Source: an uncultured Candidatus Saccharibacteria bacterium (lineage in GTDB: Bacteria > Patescibacteriota > Minisyncoccia > SW-4-49-11). Taken from it: DNA of 64,000 nt. The stretch's first letter is position 1, and each line of letters opens with the position of its first letter. Below are positions 11,929 to 24,003 of the stretch, in pieces. Made by a program: the position numbers and the translations under genes. Location: positions 2,670-66,669 of the forward strand of contig CAZYEN010000029.1 of assembly GCA_964646465.1 (NCBI GenBank). The letters run 5' to 3'. The notes beneath the pieces were generated by a model, which had not been told where the DNA came from, searched no databases, and saw only the letters and a program-made list of their open reading frames with translations.

Positions 11929-14640
11929 ATGAAAAAAACTAAAAACTATTATCAGTTATCCATTGAAGAGTCTTTATTGGCTACTAAATCTAATCTTACT
12001 GGACTCACTAATCAGGAAGTATTGGATAGAAGGCGAGAATATGGTGAGAATATATTATTAACTAAGCAAGTAGAATCTCCTATTTGGCTGTTTTTAAAAC
12101 AATTTCATAATGGATTAGTATATGTGCTTTTACTAGCAGCTATTATATCTGTGATGTTTGATCATTGGGTGGATTTTTGGATTATTATTGTAATTATAGT
12201 TATAAACTCGATCATTGGATTTTATCAGGAGTATAGAGCTGAGAGAGCTGTAGTTGCTTTGGCTAAAAAAATATCTGTTAAGACCAAGGTCTATCGGGAT
12301 GGACATCTAGAAGAACATGATGCAAAGGATTTAGTACAAGGAGATATTATTGTGTTGGAGGAGGGTGATAAAGTTCCGGCTGATGCGAGGTTGATTGAGG
12401 CTGTCGAACTACAAACTATCGAGGCTTCTCTTACCGGAGAGTCTCAGCCATCTTATAAATCTATAGATATTATTACAGAAGATGTAGGTATTGGAGATAG
12501 AAGTAACTTAGTTTGGATGGGGACATTGGTAGCTACTGGATGGGCTAAGGCTGTAGTAGTAGCTACTGGAATGAATACAGCTATTGGAGTTATTGCAGAT
12601 GATTTAGACAAAGTAGAAATTGAAAGAACACACTTTCATATTCAAACAGATATATTAGCTAAACAACTGGCTATCTTTGCCTTTAGCTCGGCCGCTATAT
12701 TGTTTGTAATCGGATTTTGGTTTAGACAATTACCATTAGATGAAATGATTGGGTTTACTTTATCCGCTTTGGTTGGAGGCATTCCTGAAAGTTTACCTAT
12801 AGTATTGATTGTAGTATTGGCTATTGGAGCTAAGAGAATGAGTGATAAAAAGGCCATTATTCGCTCTTTACCAGTGACAGAATCTTTAGCTGTGATGGAC
12901 ACTATTATTACAGATAAAACTGGGACTTTGACTGAAAATAATATGACAGTGCAAAAAATATGGGTTTTAGGAGAGGAAATGGTAGATGTTAATGGTAGAG
13001 GCTTAGAGACAAAAGGAGAGTTTACACAAGGGACAAATAATATAATCCCCCTAGATTATCCCGGTATCTCTAAATTATTACATATAGCAGGTTTAGCTCA
13101 TAATGGTCAGATATATGAAGAAGTTTTAGAAGATGGAAGTTCTGTCGTGAAGAGTGTGGGGGACCCAACCGAGGTAGCTTTATCTATTGTCTCAATGAAG
13201 TCTAATCTCAATAAAGATTTACTGGATAGTGATTGGCATCGTTTGGCAGATTTGCCATTTCGTTCGGAGAATAAATTTCGAGCTACTTATCTTCACAATG
13301 TATCTCAAGATACCCATCAATTAATGGCTATTGGGGCTAGTGAGACATTATTGAATTTGAGCAATAAAATTCTAGACAAACAAGGAAATTTAATTTCCTT
13401 GAATGATGAGCATATTCAGGAGATCAATAAGCAAGTAGCACATTTGTCTAAACAAGCAATGCGAGTTATCGCTCTTGCTTATAAAGATGAAAAAGATAAT
13501 TTGAATGGCCTTAATGTTGAACAAGTACAGGATTTGGTCTTTGTAGGACTAGTAGGAATTATAGATCCACCAAGAGCTGAAGTGGCACAAGCCATTGCAC
13601 AAGCTAAACAAGCTGGAATTAGAGTGATTATGGCCACAGGAGACCATAAAGATACTGCTCTTGCTATTGCTAAATCTATTGGACTTATTGATGAGACAGG
13701 TCAAGCTCTTACGGATACTGAAATTCAAGAACTATCTGATAGAGAACTTTATAAAAAGTTAAAGACAATTTCTGTGCTAGCTAGATTAAGCCCTAGAACT
13801 AAAATGCGAGTAGCAGATATTTTTCAAAAACATAAACATATAGTGGCTATGACAGGAGATGGAGTCAACGATGCCCCGGCTCTTAAAAAGGCGGACATAG
13901 GTATATCTATGGGCATCAGAGGCACTGATGTGGCTCGGGAAGCGAGTGATATTGTGCTTACAGATGATAATTTTGTAAGTATAATATCCGCCGTAGAAGA
14001 GGGGAGGGTAATATTTAGGAATGTGCAACAAACTAGTATATTCTTGATTACTACCAGTGTAGCGGAGATTTTATTATTTATATTAAGTTTGAGTTTAGGT
14101 TTACCACTACCACTTTTAGCAATTCAAGTCCTGTGTCTTAACCTAGTCACTAATGGAATCTCAGATATTGCCCTAGCAACGGAGCGAAGTCATAAGAATA
14201 TTCTACTAGAGAAGCCATTACCAGTAAATATGCCAGTAGTCTCACCTAATACCTATCCATATATTATAATCATGACACTTACAATGACTGGTTTAGGATT
14301 TTGGATCTATCTAGCTTATTTGGGCAATGGAATAGAGCAGGCTAGAACAATGTTTTTCTTGTGCTTAGCCTTGATGCAATTAGCTAATACCTATAATATG
14401 CGATCCCCAAAAGAATCATTGTTTAGGATAGGATTTTTCTCTAATAAAATGATAAATCTAGCAGTTATAGCCTCATCCTTGATATTAGTAGCTATGATAA
14501 CTATGCCATTTTTACAAAATATCCTACAATTCACACCCGTTTCTCTATATGATGCAATCTATTATGGCTTTATCTCAATCGTGGTTGTCATCGCCGTCGC
14601 CGAATTCTATAAGTGGAGAATGAGGTTGGAGGGGAAGTAG
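11929..14640 (+). CDS. Cation-transporting P-type ATPase (P2-type, Ca2+/Mg2+-like)
   Basis: The phosphorylation motif DKTGTLT, the hinge motif MTGDGVNDAPAL, a TGES motif, and ten TM segments. Confidence 0.9.
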   Translation: MKKTKNYYQLSIEESLLATKSNLTGLTNQEVLDRRREYGENILLTKQVESPIWLFLKQFHNGLVYVLLLAAIISVMFDHWVDFWIIIVIIVINSIIGFYQEYRAERAVVALAKKISVKTKVYRDGHLEEHDAKDLVQGDIIVLEEGDKVPADARLIEAVELQTIEASLTGESQPSYKSIDIITEDVGIGDRSNLVWMGTLVATGWAKAVVVATGMNTAIGVIADDLDKVEIERTHFHIQTDILAKQLAIFAFSSAAILFVIGFWFRQLPLDEMIGFTLSALVGGIPESLPIVLIVVLAIGAKRMSDKKAIIRSLPVTESLAVMDTIITDKTGTLTENNMTVQKIWVLGEEMVDVNGRGLETKGEFTQGTNNIIPLDYPGISKLLHIAGLAHNGQIYEEVLEDGSSVVKSVGDPTEVALSIVSMKSNLNKDLLDSDWHRLADLPFRSENKFRATYLHNVSQDTHQLMAIGASETLLNLSNKILDKQGNLISLNDEHIQEINKQVAHLSKQAMRVIALAYKDEKDNLNGLNVEQVQDLVFVGLVGIIDPPRAEVAQAIAQAKQAGIRVIMATGDHKDTALAIAKSIGLIDETGQALTDTEIQELSDRELYKKLKTISVLARLSPRTKMRVADIFQKHKHIVAMTGDGVNDAPALKKADIGISMGIRGTDVAREASDIVLTDDNFVSIISAVEEGRVIFRNVQQTSIFLITTSVAEILLFILSLSLGLPLPLLAIQVLCLNLVTNGISDIALATERSHKNILLEKPLPVNMPVVSPNTYPYIIIMTLTMTGLGFWIYLAYLGNGIEQARTMFFLCLALMQLANTYNMRSPKESLFRIGFFSNKMINLAVIASSLILVAMITMPFLQNILQFTPVSLYDAIYYGFISIVVVIAVAEFYKWRMRLEGK

Positions 14641-14773
14641 TCAGTTGTAAGAAAATATGGGACAACTGAAATTAGAGGCTGCCGCCCCGGTAAAGTTTTG
14701 TTAAACATAGTTTATTCTATTGACAGTAATTGACAATAGTTATACTATAAAAGAGTAGTGTTAAAATAAATAT

Positions 14774-16474
14774 ATGTATATAAATCAAACATGGTATGTA
14801 AAAAAGTCTGTTTTGCTTGTGGCCTCATTAGCCACATTTTTTGTTTATGATGCTTATGCTTTGGCGAATGCCAATAATAATCAAGGGTTAAATGAATATG
14901 TTGACCCTAGTCAAAACCCTAAGTATTCTCAAGTTTATAATGAAATTACTTTTACAGGAGATGGAATTACCAAAGAAGAATTAGATGATATAAATAGCCT
15001 TATAAACTTAAAAGAAAATTCTATTGAAGAGCCTATAGCTGTGGTAGGTGAGGAAGTCGTCCCTATCTCTAAATTAAAAATAGGAGCTAAAATCAAAAGC
15101 CTAGCTTATAATAGTAGTCCTGAGGACACTAAATTTATAGAATTAAATTATTATAGAGGCAAAGATGAAAATTTAGAAAATAAAAAAGCCAAGAGAAAAG
15201 AATTAAAGGATAAAAAATCTAAAGAATTGGAAACAATAGTGGCTAAATTAGATTATGAAATTAATACACAAGAACAACGAATACAAAAAAATAAAACCAA
15301 CTGGGACAAAAAAGCTAAATCCAACAAAGCTCAAGTAGAGAAATTAAAATCTAAAACTCAAACAGCCATTAGCAATAACAATAAAGAAATAATGGATATT
15401 CTATACCCTAGTAAAGAGAGTATAGATAAACTTAATGCTGCAATTTTGGAAGAGCGAAATAAATCTAAGAATTTTTTGGAGCAGAATGCTAATCGACCAA
15501 AGTATATAAAGGAAAAACTGCAAACTTCGATTAAAATTCCGGAAGTTTTAGCCTGGGGAGATTCTTCTAACTCAGTTAATAATTTAGTTATTTATAATCG
15601 AGCAAACTGGGACTATATCTGGGATGTAGATTATGCAAATGCTGTGAATGGACAAACTTTCAAACTCTGGGGTAGAGCTAATGATGCTCCAAAACAATTT
15701 AGATTCATAGATGCTAGAGCTGAGATTAGATTTGTTGGAAAAAAGGGAGTAGAGAAATGTGTAGATGTAGATTTAGCTAATGGTAGATATGATAATGGAG
15801 ATAGAGTGCATCTTTGGGACTGTCATGGTGGTAATAATCAGAAATTTATAGTACAATCAGATGGTACTATTAGACCTAAATTTGCACAACATATGTGTCT
15901 TGATGCTAGTGCAGGAGTTAGTTATGGAAGTCGTATTCATCTTTGGCAATGCCATGGAGGGAGTAATCAAAAGTTCAATGCCGGGGAGTATGATTTTGAT
16001 GGCCAGAGATTTTATTTGAGGATACAATCTTTATCAACTCCAAACGCGCAGAATGTTGTAGGGCATACATTCGTTTCAGTATGGCGTACTGGTAGAGGAA
16101 TTACTAATACCTTTAGCTTCTGGCCTAATAAAGACTTTAATGATTCAAATTATAATGGTAGAAAAAATAATATAGGTACAGGAAATAATATCAATATAGA
16201 TCACGAAAATGATTGGAACAATTCATATTATGGGACTGAAAAAGGTTTTCGATATAAAGATATAAGCATAACAAAGCAAATGTATGATGAAATAAAATAT
16301 ATGAGAGGATATCAAGCTAAGAGTTCATACATAACCTATTCTTATGATTGGTGTTTATTAAATTGTGTTAGATTCTCAACAGATTTATGGAATAAATATA
16401 CTGGTGATTCACTAAGATCATACAGTTACTCAACAGGATGTCATTCTCCAGGAATTGTATATAATAGTCTTTAA
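14774..16474 (+). CDS. Secreted protein with a Lys-rich coiled-coil region and a ricin-B (beta-trefoil) lectin domain
   Basis: An N-terminal signal peptide is present. The repeated motifs HLWDCHGGNNQKF and HLWQCHGGSNQKF are QxW-type ricin-B repeats. The Cys-containing C-terminal domain was not recognised. Confidence 0.75.
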   Translation: MYINQTWYVKKSVLLVASLATFFVYDAYALANANNNQGLNEYVDPSQNPKYSQVYNEITFTGDGITKEELDDINSLINLKENSIEEPIAVVGEEVVPISKLKIGAKIKSLAYNSSPEDTKFIELNYYRGKDENLENKKAKRKELKDKKSKELETIVAKLDYEINTQEQRIQKNKTNWDKKAKSNKAQVEKLKSKTQTAISNNNKEIMDILYPSKESIDKLNAAILEERNKSKNFLEQNANRPKYIKEKLQTSIKIPEVLAWGDSSNSVNNLVIYNRANWDYIWDVDYANAVNGQTFKLWGRANDAPKQFRFIDARAEIRFVGKKGVEKCVDVDLANGRYDNGDRVHLWDCHGGNNQKFIVQSDGTIRPKFAQHMCLDASAGVSYGSRIHLWQCHGGSNQKFNAGEYDFDGQRFYLRIQSLSTPNAQNVVGHTFVSVWRTGRGITNTFSFWPNKDFNDSNYNGRKNNIGTGNNINIDHENDWNNSYYGTEKGFRYKDISITKQMYDEIKYMRGYQAKSSYITYSYDWCLLNCVRFSTDLWNKYTGDSLRSYSYSTGCHSPGIVYNSL

Positions 16475-16484
16475 GAGTAAAATT

Positions 16485-16709
16485 ATGAGAAAAAAACTAA
16501 TTGGAATATATTTTATCTTGCTAGGAACATCGGGTATAACTTTGATATCTAGTATAGTATTTATGGTCTATAACCTATCTAATATAAAAGCTGGTAAAGA
16601 AATTTTGTTTAATTATATTTTTATAATAAATATGTATACATTTATTGCTTTATTGGTTGTGGGAGCTATAAGTTCTATCTACTTTAGATATATAAAACAA
16701 AACAAATGA
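16485..16709 (+). CDS. Small membrane protein (paralog family member 1)
   Basis: A hydrophobic 74-aa ORF. The start was moved to MRKKL to avoid overlap with the upstream gene. Confidence 0.4.
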   Translation: MRKKLIGIYFILLGTSGITLISSIVFMVYNLSNIKAGKEILFNYIFIINMYTFIALLVVGAISSIYFRYIKQNK

Positions 16710-17098
16710 AGAAAATTTATTTATTCTATAGTCTGGTTATATTATCAAGTATTAGTTTTTTAGGTGAAAAGTTATCATGGGAGATAGTTAATATAAAATC
16801 GGATAATGGGTTAATGTCTATTCTAGCAACACTGTTATTTTTGAGTGTATCTTTAATTTTACCTTTTCTGAATACTTTAATATTTTCTTTCAATATCTTT
16901 GGAAAAAAGCCAATTTCAGATAAGAGTTTTTCTAGTCTCATTGCTATTTATGGCACAGTGTACTTAATATGGGCTACTATTATTGGATATAGACATATAG
17001 TTTCAGAGTGGATTTATGAAAATAGAGAAATAGGCTGGATAAGTCTAGGGGTATTATATATAACCATCTCATTATATAAGAAATTTCAAAAGGTTTAG
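16706..17098 (+). CDS. Small membrane protein (paralog family member 2)
   Basis: It shares MKK..., an ILPF...FGKK motif and MSILATL with the neighbouring genes. Confidence 0.45.
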   Translation: MKKIYLFYSLVILSSISFLGEKLSWEIVNIKSDNGLMSILATLLFLSVSLILPFLNTLIFSFNIFGKKPISDKSFSSLIAIYGTVYLIWATIIGYRHIVSEWIYENREIGWISLGVLYITISLYKKFQKV

Positions 17099-17171
17099 TG
17101 TAATGATGTATTTTAAACAGGGTATTTGATATACAATATAGGTTTTTACAAATTTAACTTAATAACATAAT

Positions 17172-17567
17172 ATGAAAAAACTATTCTTGAGTAAACATAT
17201 TCTAATATATCTTATGTCATTGAGTTCAGTTATTTTACTACTTGGATCGATTTTGAATATATCTGCATTGCAATTCAAAATAGGAATAATTGGAGACATA
17301 GCTTTTATTATATCTAGTATATTGCCGTTTATTATTTTACCTATATTTTTAGCCTCAGTTTTCGGACTTTTTCAGAATAAAAAATATATATTAACCTGGT
17401 ATCATAGGCTAATATATATTCTAATTGTAATTTTATCTACCATATATATCATAATTTCTTTTGGAAACCTGAATATTTTAGGTAATTTTATATATTCAAA
17501 TTCTTATTATATTTTATGGAGTATAATTGGCTTAAGTTTAGCTTGTATAAATATGATTAAAAAATAA
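17172..17567 (+). CDS. Small membrane protein (paralog family member 3)
   Basis: The ILPFIILPIF...FGLFQNKK motif parallels member 2. Confidence 0.45.
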   Translation: MKKLFLSKHILIYLMSLSSVILLLGSILNISALQFKIGIIGDIAFIISSILPFIILPIFLASVFGLFQNKKYILTWYHRLIYILIVILSTIYIIISFGNLNILGNFIYSNSYYILWSIIGLSLACINMIKK

Positions 17568-17570
17568 ACT

Positions 17571-17903
17571 ATGTCTATACTCGCCACCCTAACTGTTTTA
17601 ATCCCTTTTTTAACCCTTATGTTCAATGCAGGCTCAGATGATAAAGGGATATTTGTTGCAACTATATTTTTGGGATTTTTAATTCAATCTATTATATTTA
17701 TAACCTGGTTGCTTTTGAGCATAGTGAGCCTTCATACAAAATATAAATTATTCAAAATTATCCTGATAATCCTAGCTCATATACCTCTTTTATATATTAG
17801 ATATTTTGACAATATGGCTTATATGATTTGTTATGCTATAAGTTTATTTTTATGTATCATAATTATACTAATTGACTATAAATCAGGAAATTGGCTGGAG
17901 TAG
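17571..17903 (+). CDS. Small membrane protein (paralog family member 4)
   Basis: The MSILATL N-terminus is shared with member 2, and the protein is hydrophobic. Confidence 0.4.
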   Translation: MSILATLTVLIPFLTLMFNAGSDDKGIFVATIFLGFLIQSIIFITWLLLSIVSLHTKYKLFKIILIILAHIPLLYIRYFDNMAYMICYAISLFLCIIIILIDYKSGNWLE

Positions 17904-17984
17904 GATTTTGATTTATGTATTTTTGTCTCACTTAAAAGGTAAAAATATGCTATAATACAAACAACCATTAAATTCTCATAATCT

Positions 17985-18587
17985 ATGAAAGGAGTAGTCT
18001 ATATAATGACAACAGTAGTCGATGGACTAATAAAAATAGGACAGACAGGCAGTCAAAATTATCAAGAAAGGATGAGAAATCTAGAATCAAATGGATACTA
18101 CAATGTCTCAGGACTAAAGAGATTTTTTGCAATTGAACTAGAAGATTATATTTACAAAGAAAATCTACTCAAAGAAATTTTCAATAAGCATAGAGTAGCA
18201 GATAGTGAACTATTCGCCTTAGACTATGATTTGGTAAGGCAATTATTACTATCTTTTGAAGGTAACCTAATATATCCAAAAGACATAGACAAAGAAAAAG
18301 AATTTGATGAAGTAGCAAAATCCAGAGAACAAAGTGCAAAATTTAGTTTTTATAAAAAAGGCATACAAAATGGAGAAGGAATTGTCTTCATAGCCGACAA
18401 AGATATAACAGCAAAAGTAGTAGGGGAAAGAGATGTAGAATATGGGGGACAAATTTATAAACTATCTCCATTAACCCTTAAAATATATCAACAAAAAGGT
18501 AATAGCAATAAAAGTGGAGCCTATCAAGGAGCCGCCTATTGGCAATATAAAGGAAAGAAATTAAAAGATTTACCGGATAGGGAGTAG
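17985..18587 (+). CDS. GIY-YIG-like T5orf172 domain protein with a DUF4357-like C-terminus
   Basis: GVVYIM...GLIKIGQT matches the T5orf172/MUG113 motif G.vYil...g.iKIG.T. An extended -10 TGcTATAAT lies at 17948-17956. Confidence 0.5.
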   Translation: MKGVVYIMTTVVDGLIKIGQTGSQNYQERMRNLESNGYYNVSGLKRFFAIELEDYIYKENLLKEIFNKHRVADSELFALDYDLVRQLLLSFEGNLIYPKDIDKEKEFDEVAKSREQSAKFSFYKKGIQNGEGIVFIADKDITAKVVGERDVEYGGQIYKLSPLTLKIYQQKGNSNKSGAYQGAAYWQYKGKKLKDLPDRE

Positions 18588-18638
18588 GGGGTTGGGTTTT
18601 ATATAAAAAATTATAAAGACAGATGAGAGGCTTGTAAT

Positions 18639-19004
18639 TTATTCTTCAATCTTTGAATCTTTTTTTACTGGGTCTTTGTGCTTATCTAGTATCTGATATA
18701 CTCTTTGTCTAGTTATTTTGTACTTTTTGGCTATATCTTTAACTGACATATCAAATAAAGTATAATCTTTAAGTATTTTTAAGTGGTTATCATTTGCAAA
18801 CTTAGAGATATATATTTCTTTCTTCTTACTTTTGGAGTTGTTATGATATCTATCGACTATTTCCTTGTCGTATAATTTGACCCTTTCGCCTGTTTTCTTG
18901 AAGTATATAATCATTTCTATATTTACAAAAGTTGTAGTGGTTATAAGTTGCTTTTTAGCCTGCTGTGTATAATAGTCTTTTCCGTTTACATTTATTATAT
19001 CCAT
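18639..19004 (-). CDS. Small helix-turn-helix DNA-binding protein
   Basis: The C-terminal MSVKDIAKKYKITRQRVYQIL is HTH-like. Confidence 0.45.
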   Translation of the reverse strand: MDIINVNGKDYYTQQAKKQLITTTTFVNIEMIIYFKKTGERVKLYDKEIVDRYHNNSKSKKKEIYISKFANDNHLKILKDYTLFDMSVKDIAKKYKITRQRVYQILDKHKDPVKKDSKIEE

Positions 19005-19329
19005 ATTGTTAAGTTATTCATATAATTTCCTGCTTTTTCTACTACATTATATATTTCATATATCCAAACAGATTATGATTAATAATTAACCATATAATGT
19101 ATTATTATACTATACTTTTTTAAATAAAAAAGACCAGATAAACCTAAGTCGGATATATCTAGTCCTGTGCGTTGTCTAGCTTGTAACTAACTAACAAAAA
19201 AGTTACATAAATAATTTATCATAAAAAATAACAACAGTCAATAATTTGTATGGGATAAGAATGAAGTATAGTAGAGTAGATATTAATTTAACATAATGGC
19301 TTTTACGCACCTTAAGACGGAGTTAGAAT

Positions 19330-19450
19330 TTAGATTTGAACTATTTCACCCCCCTTTTTTTAGGAGGGGGTGCCTGAAAGGTAGGGGGTGGATTGCTTTT
19401 TGTCTCCCTTAGGAGGGAGTACCCGTAGGGGGAGGGAGGACAGAAAGCAT
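19330..19450. repeat. GC-rich hairpin repeat cluster. It contains a 44-bp unit (19398-19440) that recurs inverted at 30903-30946
   Basis: The hairpins cacccc...ggggtg, ctccct-tagg-agggag and ccc-gta-ggg are present. ttttgtctcccttaggagggagtacccgtagggggagggagga matches the rc of 30903-30946 with two mismatches. Confidence 0.6.
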
Positions 19451-19547
19451 TCATAATTTACAATTTATAACTTTATTATCTCATCTAGTGCCAATATTGA
19501 CAAAATATATTATTCCTGTTAATATATTTTCATATTCTACATATGTA

Positions 19548-19580
19548 GCGTCCCCCCTAGAGATAGGGGGCTTTCTTTTT
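19548..19580 (+). terminator. Hairpin gtcccccc-tagagata-ggggggc followed by a T-rich run. It is preceded by a TTGACA-17-TAATAT element at 19497-19525
   Basis: The hairpin is seen directly in the sequence. It is oriented as a plus-strand intrinsic terminator, and it also sits immediately 3' of the minus-strand MazF-like gene. Confidence 0.35.
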
Positions 19581-19980
19581 ATAATTTATATAATTTTTTA
19601 AATTGAGCTTTTATTTTTTTAGTGTCATTAACATCAATTCTACCAATTTTATTTTGTAGTCTTCTATAATCAATTACTCTAATTTGATGTAGACAAGCGA
19701 CCATATTTAGTTCTTTATGAATGAAATGTACAAACCAAGATCCAGATTTTATTTTGGTTGAAGTTGGTATAATTAAAAAGGTATGGGGAGAGAGTTTTTT
19801 GAAAATAATAACTGGTCTTGTATATCTGTTAGATTTACCACTAATTTCAGTCCCGATATTTTCTCCTAAATGAGCCCACCACAAGTCTCTTTCTGAAACA
19901 AAAGGAGGTTTGTGATTATTATTATCTAGTTTTGGTTTTAAAAGGAACCAAGCTTGGAAATTTTTTATAAATGTTTTCAT
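19579..19980 (-). CDS. MazF/PemK-family toxin (mRNA interferase), apparently solitary
   Basis: ERDLWWAHLGENIGTEISGK..RPVIIF ... IIPTSTK ... LHQIRVIDYRRLQNKIG parallels MazF, which reads GDvw.vdf.p..G.E..g.RPvlV...TS...qirtiDk.RL. No antitoxin ORF of at least 60 aa lies upstream. Confidence 0.6.
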   Translation of the reverse strand: MKTFIKNFQAWFLLKPKLDNNNHKPPFVSERDLWWAHLGENIGTEISGKSNRYTRPVIIFKKLSPHTFLIIPTSTKIKSGSWFVHFIHKELNMVACLHQIRVIDYRRLQNKIGRIDVNDTKKIKAQFKKLYKL

Positions 19981-20100
19981 ATATATTAGCTACTCTTTTT
20001 ATATTATACCTTTAAATAATTTCAAAGTAAAATATAGGAGAGGGAGAGAATATAGTTCCACCCCGTCAGTCAAAGCCTGCCACCCCTCAAAAGGGGAATT

Positions 20101-20128
20101 CTAAAATAATGTCGGCGAGGGCACCGAC
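20101..20128 (-). terminator. Intrinsic terminator downstream of the V-ATPase D-subunit gene
   Basis: On the minus strand, gtcggtgccctcgccgac is followed by auuauuuuag. Confidence 0.4.
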
Positions 20129-20158
20129 TCTACGAATTCATCATTTACAATTATTCTC

Positions 20159-20773
20159 CTACAATCCCAAAATTTCTTTGACTTTCATTATGGTGACTTT
20201 TTCTTGGCGGGTGAGTTCGTCTAGGGAGTTTTGGATGGATTTGAGATTGGTTTTCATCTCGGGGATGATGACATATTCTAGGGCATTGACTCGTCTTCTG
20301 GTGGCTTCTATTTCCTCAGCTAATAGCCTGGCGGTGAATTCTATCTCAGCTAATTTTACTAACAGGGGTAGTATATTTTGGATTGTTAAGAGGGATTGGT
20401 CTAAATCTTTGGGTGTGCCTAAAGTTCCATATTGGAAGGGGTCTCCTTGTAAATGAGGGATTATATGTGGGATGGTCACTCCCATAATAGATTTTTTTTG
20501 TAATTCTAGATAGGTCTTGGCTTGGGAGAGATGGATTAGTTCATTGATAGCTTCGGTTGAAATTTTGGTCTGAGCGAATTGAAATAATTGTATTGCTTCT
20601 ACAATTTTGGGAGTTAATTCTCCTCTTAGCTTGATTACTTCTTGGATAATGGCTAAAAACTCTTGTATTAGTCCATCTCTTTTGTCGGTGAGCAAACCAT
20701 GTCCACGAGAAGCGGTTTTAATCTTCTTTTTGAGCTTGAGGGCTTCTTGTCTGGTCGGTTTGACGGCAGGCAT
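20159..20773 (-). CDS. atpD: V/A-type ATP synthase subunit D
   Basis: The N-terminus has a subunit D-like profile, the protein is 204 aa, and it occupies the last position of the operon. Confidence 0.85.
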   Translation of the reverse strand: MPAVKPTRQEALKLKKKIKTASRGHGLLTDKRDGLIQEFLAIIQEVIKLRGELTPKIVEAIQLFQFAQTKISTEAINELIHLSQAKTYLELQKKSIMGVTIPHIIPHLQGDPFQYGTLGTPKDLDQSLLTIQNILPLLVKLAEIEFTARLLAEEIEATRRRVNALEYVIIPEMKTNLKSIQNSLDELTRQEKVTIMKVKEILGL

Positions 20774-20775
20774 AT

Positions 20776-22161
20776 TTATTTGGAATACTTATCTATAAAT
20801 TCGGGCTTGATTTTCTTTAGTTCTTTTCTCGGTAATATTGATAATAATTCCCAAGACAAATCTAAGGTGTCTAGAATGGTTCGGTTTTCTCGTCTTCCTT
20901 GCCTTATATATCTACTCTCAAATGCTTCAGCGAATTTGATATAGGCTTTATCTGTCTCTGATAGGGCTGATTCTCCTAGGATTAAGGCTAATTCCTTGAT
21001 TTCCATACCTTTGGCATAGGAGGAGGCCATTTGCTCTTTGACGGCGGATAAATCTTCTCGGCTGTATTTTTTATCTACGCCAATTCGGGATAATGATCCA
21101 ATTGGTTGGATTGGAGGGTATATTCCTTGATTATGTAGCTCTCTATTGACCATAATTTGGCCTTCTGTGATGTATCCGGTTAAATCTGGTATTGGATGCT
21201 GCTTATCATCATCTGGCATTGTAAGGATAGGGATTTGGGTGAGTGACCCTGTGGATCCTTTGACTATTCCTGCTCTTTCATACAGGGTTGCAAGGTCGGT
21301 ATATAGATATCCTGGATATCCTCGTCTTCCTGGAATTTCTTTTCTAGAGGCTGAGACTTCTCGGAGGGCATCAGCATAATTGGTCATATCTGTTAGGATG
21401 ACTAATACATGCATATTCTTCTCAAAGGCTAAGTATTCTCCTAGAGTGAGAGCTAATCTTGGTAGGGTAATTCGCTCTACAATTGGGTCGCTAGCGGTGT
21501 TGATAAACAAAGCTGCTCTCTCCATCGCTCCGGTTTTTTCAAATGAGTCTATGAAGAATTGAGCTTCTTCAAAGGTGACTCCCATAGCTGCAAAGATTAC
21601 TACGAAAGGTTCTTCGGCTTTGACTAAATCTGTTCCATTTTGTAGGGCTACAACTTGGGCTTGTTCAGCAATTTGGGTGGCTATTTCAGAATGTGGTAGT
21701 CCTGACCCTGAGAAAATAGGTAGTTTTTGTCCTCTTACTAGGGCATTTAGTCCGTCTATGGTGGAGATTCCAGTTTGAATAAATTCACTAGGGAATTGTC
21801 GCATTCCTGGATTGATAGGGGAGCCATTGATGTCTAGATATTTCTCAGCGATTATTTCTGGTCCGCCGTCTTTGACTTTACCAGCTCCTGTGAATACTCG
21901 TCCTAACATACTGTCTGAGACTCCAAATTTGAGAGTTTCTCCTAAGAAGGCTATCTCGGCATTCTTTACATCTAATCCGTCGGTACTAGTGAATAACTGT
22001 ACTACAGCGGTGTCTTTGCTGGCTTCTAGTACTCGTCCTTGTCGGATTTGTCCTTTTGAGTCTCTAATTTCCACCATTTCCTCGAAGGCAACTTGTGGGA
22101 CTTTCTCAACTACGACTAGGGGTCCGGCAATTTCTTTGATTGTGTTATACCATTTCTTCAT
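20776..22161 (-). CDS. atpB: V/A-type ATP synthase subunit B
   Basis: A 461-aa non-catalytic B subunit, highly conserved throughout. Confidence 0.9.
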
Positions 22162-22170
22162 ATAATTATC

Positions 22171-24003
22171 CTAAATTCCACTTATTACTTTATTGATACC
22201 AAAGTCCTCGGATTTATCATTATCTTTGAGATTTTGAATTGTGCTTGAGATATTTTCTATTAGAGACACTATATTCTCAATGTCTGATTCTGGAGTATTT
22301 TTGAGTCTAGCAATTTCTTCACGAATTGGTAGGTCTAGGATATCATTTATCTCAATTTGAGGATTATTTTTGGCGGTTTCAGTGGCTTCATTATGGAAGG
22401 TCATCATTGCTTTTAGCATCAAATACATTTTACGAGTTGAGGCAAAGGCATCAATTTCATCAAAGGCATTTTGTTGTAGATAATCTTCTCGAAGTCCTCG
22501 AGCTGTATCTAGGAGTATTTTCTCAGAGGTAGATAGGGCGTCCATTCCTACTAATTTTATAATATCGTCTAGCTCATTTTCTTTCTGTAAAATTTGCATT
22601 GCTAAATCTCTTAGGTCTTTCCAATCTGAATCAGTTGCATTGATGAAATATTCTTCTACATTATCTTTGTATAGGCTATAACTATTGAGCCAATGAATAG
22701 ATGGAAAATGTTTTTTGGCGGCTAGAGATGCATCTAATCCCCAAAAAGCTTTGGTCACTTTAAGAGTGGCTTGGCTAACTGGTTCAGATAAGTCTCCACC
22801 TGGAGGTGATACGGCTGCAATGATAGTGGCTGACCCAATTCTTTCTTCTGTTCCTAATGTGCTGACTATTCCGGCTCTTTCATAAAAGGCTGAAATTCTA
22901 GATCCAAGATAGGCAGGATATCCTTCTTCTCCTGGCATTTCTTCTAGTCTTCCTGACATTTCTCGCATAGCTTCTGCCCAACGAGAGGTTGAATCGGCCA
23001 TCATAGCTACATTGTATCCCATATCTCGATAGTATTCAGCTAAGGTAATACCTGTATAAACTGAGGCTTCACGAGCTGCGATTGGCATATTGGAGGTATT
23101 GGCAACTAAAATCGTTCTTTCCATCAAAGGTCGTCCAGATTTTGGATCTTTAAGGTGTGGAAATTCTACCAATACATCGGTAATTTCATTTCCTCTCTCT
23201 CCACAACCTACATAAACTACAATATCTGCATCTGACCATTTTGCTAATTGATGTTGAATAACTGTTTTTCCAGCTCCGAATGGTCCTGGTACGGCGGCTG
23301 CTCCTCCTTTTGGAATTGGGAAGAATGTATCTATAATTCTTTGTTGAGTTATTAGTGGAGTAGTTGGCACTTGTTTTGCTTTGTATGGTCTTGGGGTTCT
23401 AACTGGCCATTTGTGCATTAATTGGACTGGGTTTTCTCCAATTGTAGCTATTGTCTCGGTAATTGTGAATTCTCCTGCCTTGATATCCTTAACTTCTCCC
23501 TCTACTCCAAATGGAACTAAAATCTTATGAGTAATTAACTCGGTCTCTTGTACTGTACCTAATATGTCTCCAGTGGTTACAGAGTCTCCTTTTTTGACTA
23601 ATGGCTTAAATTCCCATTTCATCTCTCTGTCTAGGCTAGGAGCGGTTAAACCTCTTGCAATATATTCAGCATTCAATCCTTGGGCAGCTGCTTTCTCAGC
23701 AATTACATTTAGAGGTCGTAAAATTCCATCAAATAATCCAGAGGTCAAAAGTCCTGGGCCTAATTCAATACTAAGGGGCTCTCCAGTTGAGACAACAGGC
23801 TCTCCTACGATTAGACCAGAGGTGTCCTCATAGACTTGAATGGAGGCTGTATCACCTTTTAATTCAATGATTTCCCCCATTAATTCTAGATTTCCAACTT
23901 TCACTAAATCATACATTTTAGCTCCTTTCATGGAGTCTGCGATAACTAGTGGTCCTGAGATTTTGATGATAATTCCGGTATTCATAGTAATTAGTTTAAT
24001 CAA
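22171..24003 (-). CDS. atpA: V/A-type ATP synthase catalytic subunit A
   Basis: Walker [10 protein letters not shown], 610 aa with the A-subunit-specific non-homologous insert, and the ERGNE region. Confidence 0.92.

Follow-up and report, generated by a model that had tools for sequence, protein, structure and literature searches.

Which role would join, on one strand, a large, putatively secreted lectin protein to a row of very small membrane proteins? The question is raised by a locus in the window, our name for the whole stretch of 64,000 nucleotides (nt) analysed here, taken from contig CAZYEN010000029.1 of an uncultured bacterium. A gene for a 566-residue protein (nt 14774-16474) is followed by four short open reading frames (ORFs), m1 to m4 (nt 16485-17903), that encode polytopic membrane proteins; an earlier note on this DNA had described this layout, and it is real. 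The note had also guessed, from the layout, that a polymorphic toxin or bacteriocin was encoded here alongside an array of immunity genes. Comparative evidence (a papain fold, array variation, mosaicism and co-variation) now favours that guess. We consider it fairly probable that the locus encodes a lectin-targeted polymorphic toxin secreted by the Sec pathway, accompanied by a single cognate immunity gene and several orphan ones.

Much work has gone into the interbacterial toxin-immunity systems of cultivable Proteobacteria, Firmicutes, Bacteroidota and Actinobacteria. To our knowledge, little is known of such systems in the Candidate Phyla Radiation (CPR, or Patescibacteria), whose members have very small genomes and make up a sizeable part of the diversity of bacteria. 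A literature search for the CPR together with ricin or lectin secreted proteins found no paper.

Domains of the 566-residue protein

The gene and its parts are these (AF2, AlphaFold2):

nt 14774..16474, + strand: lectin/Cys-hydrolase gene (566 residues), the candidate polymorphic toxin, from its ORF, Pfam and homolog alignment
nt 14774..14866, + strand: signal-peptide-like N-terminus, residues 1-31, with KK, a hydrophobic stretch and ALA/NA, from hydropathy and sequence
nt 14879..15160, + strand: conserved N-terminal alpha/beta region, residues 36-129, with many invariant columns and AF2 strands and helices
nt 15161..15529, + strand: Lys-rich helical stalk, residues 130-252, 22% Lys, with long helices in AF2
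nt 15581..15988, + strand: ricin-B-type beta-trefoil lectin, residues ~270-405, from Pfam PF00652 and AF2 strands
nt 15989..16312, + strand: core of the permuted papain-fold domain, residues 406-513, with the G430-H431 motif and D454, ending at G512-Y513
nt 16313..16471, + strand: variable tail, residues 514-566, with the predicted N-C531 catalytic-Cys helix; it co-varies with the first downstream gene

The earlier note had left the Cys-containing C-terminal domain without assignment, a description that still applies to its sequence: with Cys residues at 527, 531 and 556, the domain has no significant Pfam match, and residues ~406-566 drew nothing significant from the Protein Data Bank (PDB), whether as a single sequence or as a profile. 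AF2 modelling, which the note had proposed for this domain, is more informative. The model (predicted local distance difference test, pLDDT, 76; predicted template modelling score, pTM, 0.78) has a permuted papain fold that resembles the hydrolases of the TseH, PPPDE (Peptidase_C97) and YiiX types, and its His and Cys are near-invariant. Across 65 family members, H431 (codon at nt 16064-16066) and D454 are each present in 65/65, G430 in 63/65, and C531 of the N-C motif (codon at nt 16364-16366) in 62/65. The residue order, H431...D454...C531, places His before Cys and is permuted, as in permuted NlpC/P60-type enzymes. Helix 130-142 of the model is the predicted catalytic-Cys helix, and it lies inside the tail that tracks specificity. 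We conclude that the domain probably forms a sequence family of its own, hitherto undescribed, among the permuted papain-fold cysteine hydrolases. By sequence, it should be treated as a putative new family of the TseH/PPPDE/YiiX-type superfamily and not as a member of PF05903.

Upstream of this domain lies the lectin. Ricin_B_lectin (PF00652) was found over residues 326-402 (E = 1.8e-16; 60.9 bits against a cut-off of 29) with two lobes, and AF2 strands cover residues 271-405, as in a three-lobed beta-trefoil. The ricin-B assignment of the earlier note is upheld; the tandem repeats that it gave as QxW are Q-x-F, with QKF at 356 and 399. Where the note named a signal peptide and a Lys-rich coiled coil, there are a signal-peptide-like N-terminus and a Lys-rich stretch with predicted helices. 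Residues 9-33 comprise a KK n-region, a hydrophobic h-region (residues 13-31 by hydropathy) and the ALA/NA site, and by inspection the homologs have the same layout; the long helices of the stalk are predicted at low pLDDT. Residues 36-129 are the best-conserved part of the toxin family, and AF2 confidence there is moderate to low; indeed, the full-length model (pLDDT 57) is too poor to interpret either the N-terminal domain or the stalk. A Pfam scan of the 566-residue protein detected no domain besides Ricin_B_lectin, including no ALF repeat and no trypsin-like domain; Pfam and NCBIfam returned no LXG/WXG100 domain, and no dedicated secretion-system domain was detected in the protein. Delivery appears to need just the signal-like N-terminus, presumed to be of the Sec type, and the built-in ricin-B lectin.

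The family is rare. Only 60 clusters reached E <= 0.001 when a profile was searched against 1.84 billion representative proteins. In nearly all complete matches the C-domain is at or near the C-terminus, and Ricin_B is directly upstream of it in 36 of 49 distant relatives. Apparent co-occurrences with Toxin-deaminase, tape-measure and RIH_assoc domains were set aside as an artefact, all of them deriving from one repetitive protein, P0080. Full-length homologs of the toxin form ~25 clusters at 41-89% identity, all metagenomic and all annotated as "hypothetical". The named matches in species-representative genomes are metagenome-assembled genomes (MAGs) of Candidatus Paceibacteria, Paceibacterota and the Parcubacteria group, several of them from freshwater lakes. 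This distribution bears on a domestic explanation of the locus: a papain-fold hydrolase that is secreted, carries a carbohydrate-binding domain and keeps its chromosomal position in several strains might be a housekeeping autolysin or a cell-wall remodelling enzyme, with the membrane proteins as its regulators. Such a role seems to us very improbable for a family so sparse and, among named genomes, drawn from the CPR/Parcubacteria group. Further, its catalytic tail recombines, the number of membrane genes varies and the flanks differ between strains.

Recombining tails and arrays of membrane genes

The comparison set comprised ~30 related Paceibacteria loci, labelled L001 and so on, with W for this window; many of them come from closely related strains and are partly non-independent. 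The small ORFs were taken from ATG starts only, and those of the window are:

nt 16485..16709, + strand: m1, 74 residues from ATG, 2 transmembrane segments, family A subtype A1, candidate cognate immunity gene
nt 16706..17098, + strand: m2, 130 residues, ~3-4 transmembrane segments, family K type, candidate orphan immunity gene
nt 17172..17567, + strand: m3, 131 residues, ~4-5 transmembrane segments, family G, candidate orphan immunity gene
nt 17571..17903, + strand: m4, 110 residues, 4 transmembrane segments, family C, candidate orphan immunity gene

These genes are closely packed, all lie on the strand of the toxin gene and have 2-5 hydropathy-predicted transmembrane segments each. The m1 gene starts 10 nt past the stop of the 566-residue gene (a listed TTG-start version of its ORF begins at 16455), and m2 overlaps m1 by ATGA. 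Wherever the sequence of a locus extends far enough downstream, the toxin gene has a small polytopic membrane ORF, or more than one, directly behind it. In most loci the first of them starts between a short overlap and ~20 nt away, and ~70 nt away in L010.

The family of the first small gene goes with the type of tail that precedes it:

Tail NCVR[FY]STDLW..., in the window, L001/L020, L019, L031, L034 and L038: first gene of family A (m1-like)
Tail NQNCASYSIQLW...IIHPTH, in L004, L022 and L030: first gene of family B
Tail NRNCSTYSASLF, in L012 and L036: first gene of family G (m3-like; m3 orthologs at 85%)
Tail NCA[TA]YS..LYN...DPD, in L006, L007, L009, L016, L018 and L027: first gene of family D
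Tail CQTCATYSIAVW, in L024, L025, L028 and L029: first gene of family F
Tail ...WGKYTNQWFSMPDWPIITPGAIYQQI, in L037: first gene of family K (m2-like; m2 ortholog at 95%)
Divergent toxin, in L010: first gene of family C (m4-like, distant, 42% identity)

After dereplication of the loci (95% tail identity), the 10 pairs that fall in the same tail cluster (at least 60% identity) agree without exception in the family of the first gene, a result matched by 0 of 100,000 label shuffles. Membership in the same family correlates at 0.81 with identity of the tail, at 0.45 with that of the core and at 0.19 with that of the N-terminal region. L037 and L038 conform to the pairing. The correspondence extends to subtypes within family A, which are ~46% identical to each other: A1 accompanies the toxins of the window, L031 and L034, and A2 those of L001, L019 and L038. 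By this comparison, m1 is the cognate-type gene of the window and a candidate cognate immunity protein. In other loci, m2 and close orthologs of m3 stand, as m1 does here, first in line next to a tail variant of their own; m4 has only a distant homolog in such a place. Orthologs of m4 (85-92% identity) close the arrays of L012, L030, L034, L036 and L037, and m4 is usually last.

The toxin gene itself is a mosaic with two sharp junctions. Homology between W and L006 at the DNA level ends at nt 15454, after E227 of the conserved EILEER (codon at nt 15452-15454). Homology to L012, L036, L030 and L037 stops at nt 16312, where codon 513 ends, after Y513 of the invariant G512-Y513 (KYMRGY). The latter endpoint is thus the same in four comparisons, and that at codon 227 was seen in one. 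Region-wise identities show that N-terminal lineages do not follow the C-terminal types. Over residues 36-228, L034 and L006 share 94% identity, but only 56%, 36% and 29% in the ricin domain, core and tail; for L001 and L007, the N-region is 91% identical and the tail 27%. L016 and L024 agree in the N-region (92%), the linker (95%) and the ricin domain (100%) and differ in the core (37%) and the tail (24%), which indicates that the hydrolase domain is exchangeable by itself. In the subgroup of the window, the unit of exchange is the last 53 residues only. Judged by these alignments, codons 227 and 513 mark junctions that act as demarcation motifs do in other polymorphic toxins.

Exchange at the second junction includes the adjoining small genes. 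Between W and L012, a block of tail, m1 and m2 replaces the tail of L012, and homology resumes 31 nt into m3. This swap reproduces the sequential displacement known from the clusters of Vibrio cholerae (PMC5361080). Similarly, the array of L016 consists of D then F, and L024, with a near-identical lectin, has an F-type toxin and F alone. Longer arrays carry more such families, as in L036 (G, E, A1, B, C) and L030 (B, A2, J, A1, C). The number of small membrane genes runs from 1 to at least 6:

1-2 genes: L031, L006, L018, L014
2-3 genes: L012, L034, L001, L004
4 genes: the window
5-6 genes or more: L030, L036, L005, L038

A large part of the variation is found at a single chromosomal site in closely related strains, flanked by a P-type ATPase or NUDIX/DHH on one side and by T5orf172 or a V-ATPase operon on the other. 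The earlier note had put forward variation of the gene count between related genomes as a test of its guess, and conservation of the small proteins as single-copy housekeeping genes as what would speak against it. The variation is there, and the small genes are not single-copy housekeeping genes. Taken together, mosaicism at junctions, a co-varying downstream gene and orphan arrays of variable number are the marks of a polymorphic toxin-immunity system as understood by Zhang et al. (2012) and Ruhe et al. (2020).

A docking partner would also give co-variation of tail and first gene. On such an explanation, the protein would be a host-interaction factor of an episymbiont, a lectin-hydrolase that binds and locally opens the host envelope for attachment or for scavenging of nutrients or lipids. 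The small membrane proteins would anchor, export or regulate it at the surface of the producer, or would shield the producer, and diversification would reflect arms races over host range. The organism belongs to the CPR/Paceibacteria, described as epibionts that draw resources from their hosts (PMC13622651); the lectin-plus-hydrolase build suits an attack on surfaces, and the structural neighbours of the C-domain include the lipid-acting enzymes PLAAT4, CLN5 and RID. We nevertheless hold this explanation to be unlikely for the locus as a whole, though possible for the lectin and the hydrolase. The arrays contain intact, selected genes that pair with toxin variants absent from the genome, which is hard to reconcile with anchors or chaperones of a single protein. 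Moreover, the first gene swaps together with the tail while older genes stay downstream, which is the pattern of immunity displacement.

That the genes are selected follows from their substitutions. The ratios of nonsynonymous to synonymous rates (dN/dS) against orthologs are 0.10-0.49 for m1, 0.18-0.29 for m2, 0.42-0.55 for m3 and 0.08-0.29 for m4; all four are under purifying selection, even genes that are never first in close relatives. Each ORF recurs in other metagenomes, as the exact sequence or as a cluster member at least 90% identical, and the 90% cluster of m2 has 8 members on different contigs. Word-indexed searches with m3 and m1 returned close relatives only (at least 82% identity) and did not extend the families.

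The earlier note had taken the four small proteins for a tandem paralog family, and here it must be corrected. In a Smith-Waterman shuffle test, m2 and m3 are significantly related (z = 7.3), and m1 and m4 score at shuffle level against all others; when families assembled from the related loci are compared profile against profile, those of m1-m4 prove unrelated apart from m2 and m3. The array is heterologous. The motifs offered for kinship do not bear it: MKK is a trivial start common to all, ILPF...FGKK is present only in m2 and m3, and MSILATL is a seven-residue match between the interior of m2 and the N-terminus of m4 that has no significant extension. We regard m2 and m3 as diverged paralogs. 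Over all loci, clustering yields at least 10 small-protein families, which have no detectable mutual homology except that of m2 with m3 and a few chimeras. One chimera (L001 10295-10600, L020 7295-7600) is m3-like in its N-terminal ~60 residues (family G; hhalign E = 2.5e-18) and like family E in its C-terminal ~40 (E = 6e-12), which points to recombination between unrelated genes of the immunity type.

Three further observations concern parts of these loci. At L031 5314-5673 there is an m4-like gene without ATG (MSILATL...), readable only from an upstream TTG and skipped by the public gene call; it may reflect a shifted start or the early decay of an orphan gene. At L011 915-1040, in the same MAG as L008, tblastn gave a match at 43% identity to the last 37 toxin residues only. 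That MAG also holds a full-length relative on another contig, and the match may be an orphan fragment of a toxin tail. Directly 5' of the toxin gene and on its strand, L014 (3542-5920) and L018 (3542-5920), which represent one lineage of Paceibacteria, encode a conserved 792-residue protein with no Pfam domain; L018 has a second copy at 1-1199, and the protein is absent from the window.

A proposed mechanism and its known counterparts

In the mechanism that we infer, the Sec pathway would export the 566-residue protein via its N-terminal signal. The N-terminal region and the Lys-rich stalk would present the ricin-B lectin, which would dock on glycans of the target-cell surface, and the C-domain, using H431, C531 and probably D454, would attack an envelope component from outside. 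Candidate substrates are a peptide or amide bond of peptidoglycan, the kind of target suggested for TseH, or a lipid-linked molecule embedded in the membrane. The product of m1, matched to the last 53 residues of the toxin, would protect the producer, and m2, m3 and m4 would serve as orphan immunity against the other toxin variants that the population carries. New cassettes of tail plus immunity gene would recombine in at ...KYMRGY513, and larger cassettes of lectin plus hydrolase at ...EILEE227, each entry shifting older immunity genes downstream. Because the tail holds the predicted catalytic-Cys helix, the membrane proteins could plausibly confer immunity by occluding the active-site region, or by capturing it, at the membrane surface. 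Membrane-acting toxins are the usual partners of polytopic immunity proteins (PMC12744356, PMC9484751), a speculative hint at a membrane-proximal or lipid-linked substrate.

One close counterpart is TseH of V. cholerae, which is toxic in the periplasm and has a GHxx motif, and whose effect is neutralised by TsiH, the product of the gene next to it (PMC4453574); its catalytic mutant is H64A (bioRxiv 10.1101/2021.05.27.445954). The likeness to this type VI secretion system (T6SS) pair (PDB 6v98) lies in the GH motif of the catalytic His, the permuted papain-like fold and, for TseH, neutralisation by an adjacent gene. The identity, however, is ~16-17%, with no significant sequence match. TseH, a small cargo of the T6SS, lacks a signal peptide (PMC4453574), whereas here signal, stalk and lectin are fused to the hydrolase. 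Unlike TsiH, the immunity candidates are polytopic and stand in arrays, and Sec secretion of the CPR monoderm type is assumed. Papain-fold toxin domains have also been catalogued among polymorphic toxins, including Sec-exported forms assigned to the type II secretion system ("T2SS") (Zhang et al. 2012, PMC3482391). As in the Tox-NLPC/P60 and Tox-PL1 systems of that catalogue, a conserved N-terminal part precedes a variable C-terminal toxin, with an immunity gene directly downstream. Those clades have the order C...H...D, in contrast to the H431...D454...C531 of the present domain, which has no Pfam match. Further, Rhs, HINT and the standard modules are absent here, and variation is within one domain family, in a tail of 53 residues.

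In architecture, parallels exist in the TspA-TsaI and EsxX-ExiCD systems of Staphylococcus aureus, where the gene for a polymorphic C-terminal toxin likewise has a series of differing polytopic immunity genes directly behind it. The tsaI copies number 2-16, with orphan copies in strains that lack the toxin (PMC9484751, PMC12744356). TspA and EsxX, however, depolarise membranes (EsxX by a glycine zipper) and depend on LXG and the type VII secretion system, whereas the present toxin is enzyme-like and has no LXG/WXG. The TsaI copies are homologous to one another (DUF443), whereas the families of the window are mutually unrelated. The umbrella (Umb) toxins of Streptomyces are also secreted, diffusible and polymorphic toxins of a monoderm, with a coiled-coil stalk and with lectins that target glycopolymers of the cell surface at high specificity (PMC11062931, PMC13274773). 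They form a multi-protein particle with separate UmbA lectins, an UmbC that has ALF repeats and is exported by twin-arginine translocation (TAT), and soluble Imm immunity proteins. Here, there is one 566-residue Sec-type polypeptide with a ricin-B lectin and no ALF, and the resemblance is functional only. Finally, in the auxiliary T6SS clusters of V. cholerae, replacement of C-terminus and immunity gene leaves orphans downstream (PMC5361080), as in the pairs L016/L024 and W/L012; secretion system, toxin families and phylum are all different. The locus differs from the known examples in its new, permuted toxin family, absent from Pfam, in a delivery that appears to rely on the signal-like N-terminus and the built-in lectin, in its very small exchange module of 53 residues and in its CPR lineage. 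It also differs in that heterologous, very small polytopic immunity candidates stand beside an enzyme-like toxin.

Several points weigh against the toxin-immunity reading. The top Foldseek match of the C-domain, TseH, has a template modelling score of 0.52 and an E-value of 0.41, which is not significant, and the model includes stretches of pLDDT 54-68. In Pfam at E <= 10, the best match of residues ~406-566 is Peptidase_C97 at E = 0.024, for 2/16 members and below the cut-off. The signal peptide was recognised by inspection, and the membrane topology of the small proteins comes from hydropathy alone. The polytopic immunity proteins already known act mostly against pore-forming toxins, not enzymes (PMC12744356). 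It is also unusual, within one toxin family, that the small-protein families are mutually unrelated though the toxin domains are all homologous. Part of the association between tail and first gene is linkage by descent, and one apparent exception to it exists: family E stands behind two tails, the two E proteins being only 30% identical.

Genomic surroundings and meaning for the CPR

Two sites lie 5' of the toxin gene, both recognised by consensus match only:

nt 14680-14692: terminator-like hairpin, 3' of the preceding P-type ATPase gene
nt 14720..14748, + strand: promoter-like TTGACA-17-TACTAT, 5' of the toxin gene

The locus is part of a hypervariable island (~14640-20160) between the P-type ATPase gene (11929-14640) and a V-type ATPase operon. 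In L012, L031, L034, L036 and L006, the island holds differing sets of Bro-N, DUF6194, NUDIX/DHH, methyltransferase, type I restriction-modification (R-M) and T5orf172 genes. Just 3' of the array, at 17985-18587 on the + strand, is a gene for a 200-residue T5orf172/MUG113 (GIY-YIG-like) protein that matches PDC-S57, a candidate defence family of PADLOC (E = 1.4e-54), and also a PHROG "homing endonuclease" family; near-identical copies follow the arrays of L006, L012, L034 and L036. A PemK/MazF-like toxin gene (Pfam, 1.6e-09) lies at 19579-19980 on the - strand, with no adjacent antitoxin-candidate ORF of at least 40 residues. About 575 nt from it, at 18639-19004 on the - strand, is a gene for a small helix-turn-helix protein (YlxM / sigma-70 region 4-like), and the interval 19005-19578 has no ORF of at least 40 residues. 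Beyond the island, 20159-24003 on the - strand encodes subunits D and B of a V/A-type ATPase and a 610-residue ORF, which is probably the A subunit from its synteny with L031; the presence of these genes is consistent with the use of V-type rather than F-type ATPases by some CPR lineages. A defence-system reading of the toxin and m1-m4 was dropped, since PADLOC had no hits for them.

These surroundings invite comparison with a phage remnant. Papain-fold domains such as NlpC/P60 and CHAP are frequent in endolysins. The m1 protein, with 74 residues, 2 transmembrane segments and a charged C-terminus, is holin-like, and the variable island contains T5orf172, Bro-N, MazF and R-M genes. The locus might then be the lysis cassette of a defective prophage or mobile element, with an endolysin-like hydrolase and with m1-m4 as holins, antiholins or spanin-like proteins. 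This is highly improbable in our estimation, and we rejected a holin/endolysin cassette on its context. PHROG gave no significant match for the toxin or m1-m4 (the sole hit, to m2, had E = 0.04), no relative was found among 2.9 million viral contigs, and there are no phage structural genes nearby, the neighbours being cellular or defence genes. The protein has a signal sequence of its own and a conserved N-terminal region and stalk of 250 residues, atypical of endolysins. Nor would one expect of holins at least 6 unrelated membrane genes in a locus, or a specific co-variation of tail and first gene.

If the reading as a polymorphic toxin with cognate and orphan immunity is right, the C-domain would be a new toxin domain family missing from curated libraries, and the very small membrane proteins would make up several immunity families not described before. 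The 566-residue protein would be a compact natural case of lectin-targeted toxin delivery by a single polypeptide. Its exact 53-residue specificity module, together with the junctions at codons 227 and 513, would offer a handle on specificity between enzyme and membrane immunity protein, and the locus would mark strain-level competition in freshwater Paceibacteria.

A further and more tentative proposal, possible though in our view doubtful, is that CPR strains fight one another with a Sec-secreted, lectin-guided enzyme toxin of an undescribed permuted papain-fold family, whose specificity resides in the last ~53 residues, around the catalytic Cys, and which is opposed by small polytopic membrane immunity proteins of several unrelated families. 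If that is true, immunity against the enzyme would be unusual. The membrane proteins might, for example, shield or imitate a substrate that sits in the membrane, such as a lipid-linked precursor of the cell wall, or catch the catalytic tail at the membrane surface. It would also mean that ultra-small symbionts with minimal genomes still spend on weapons that discriminate kin.

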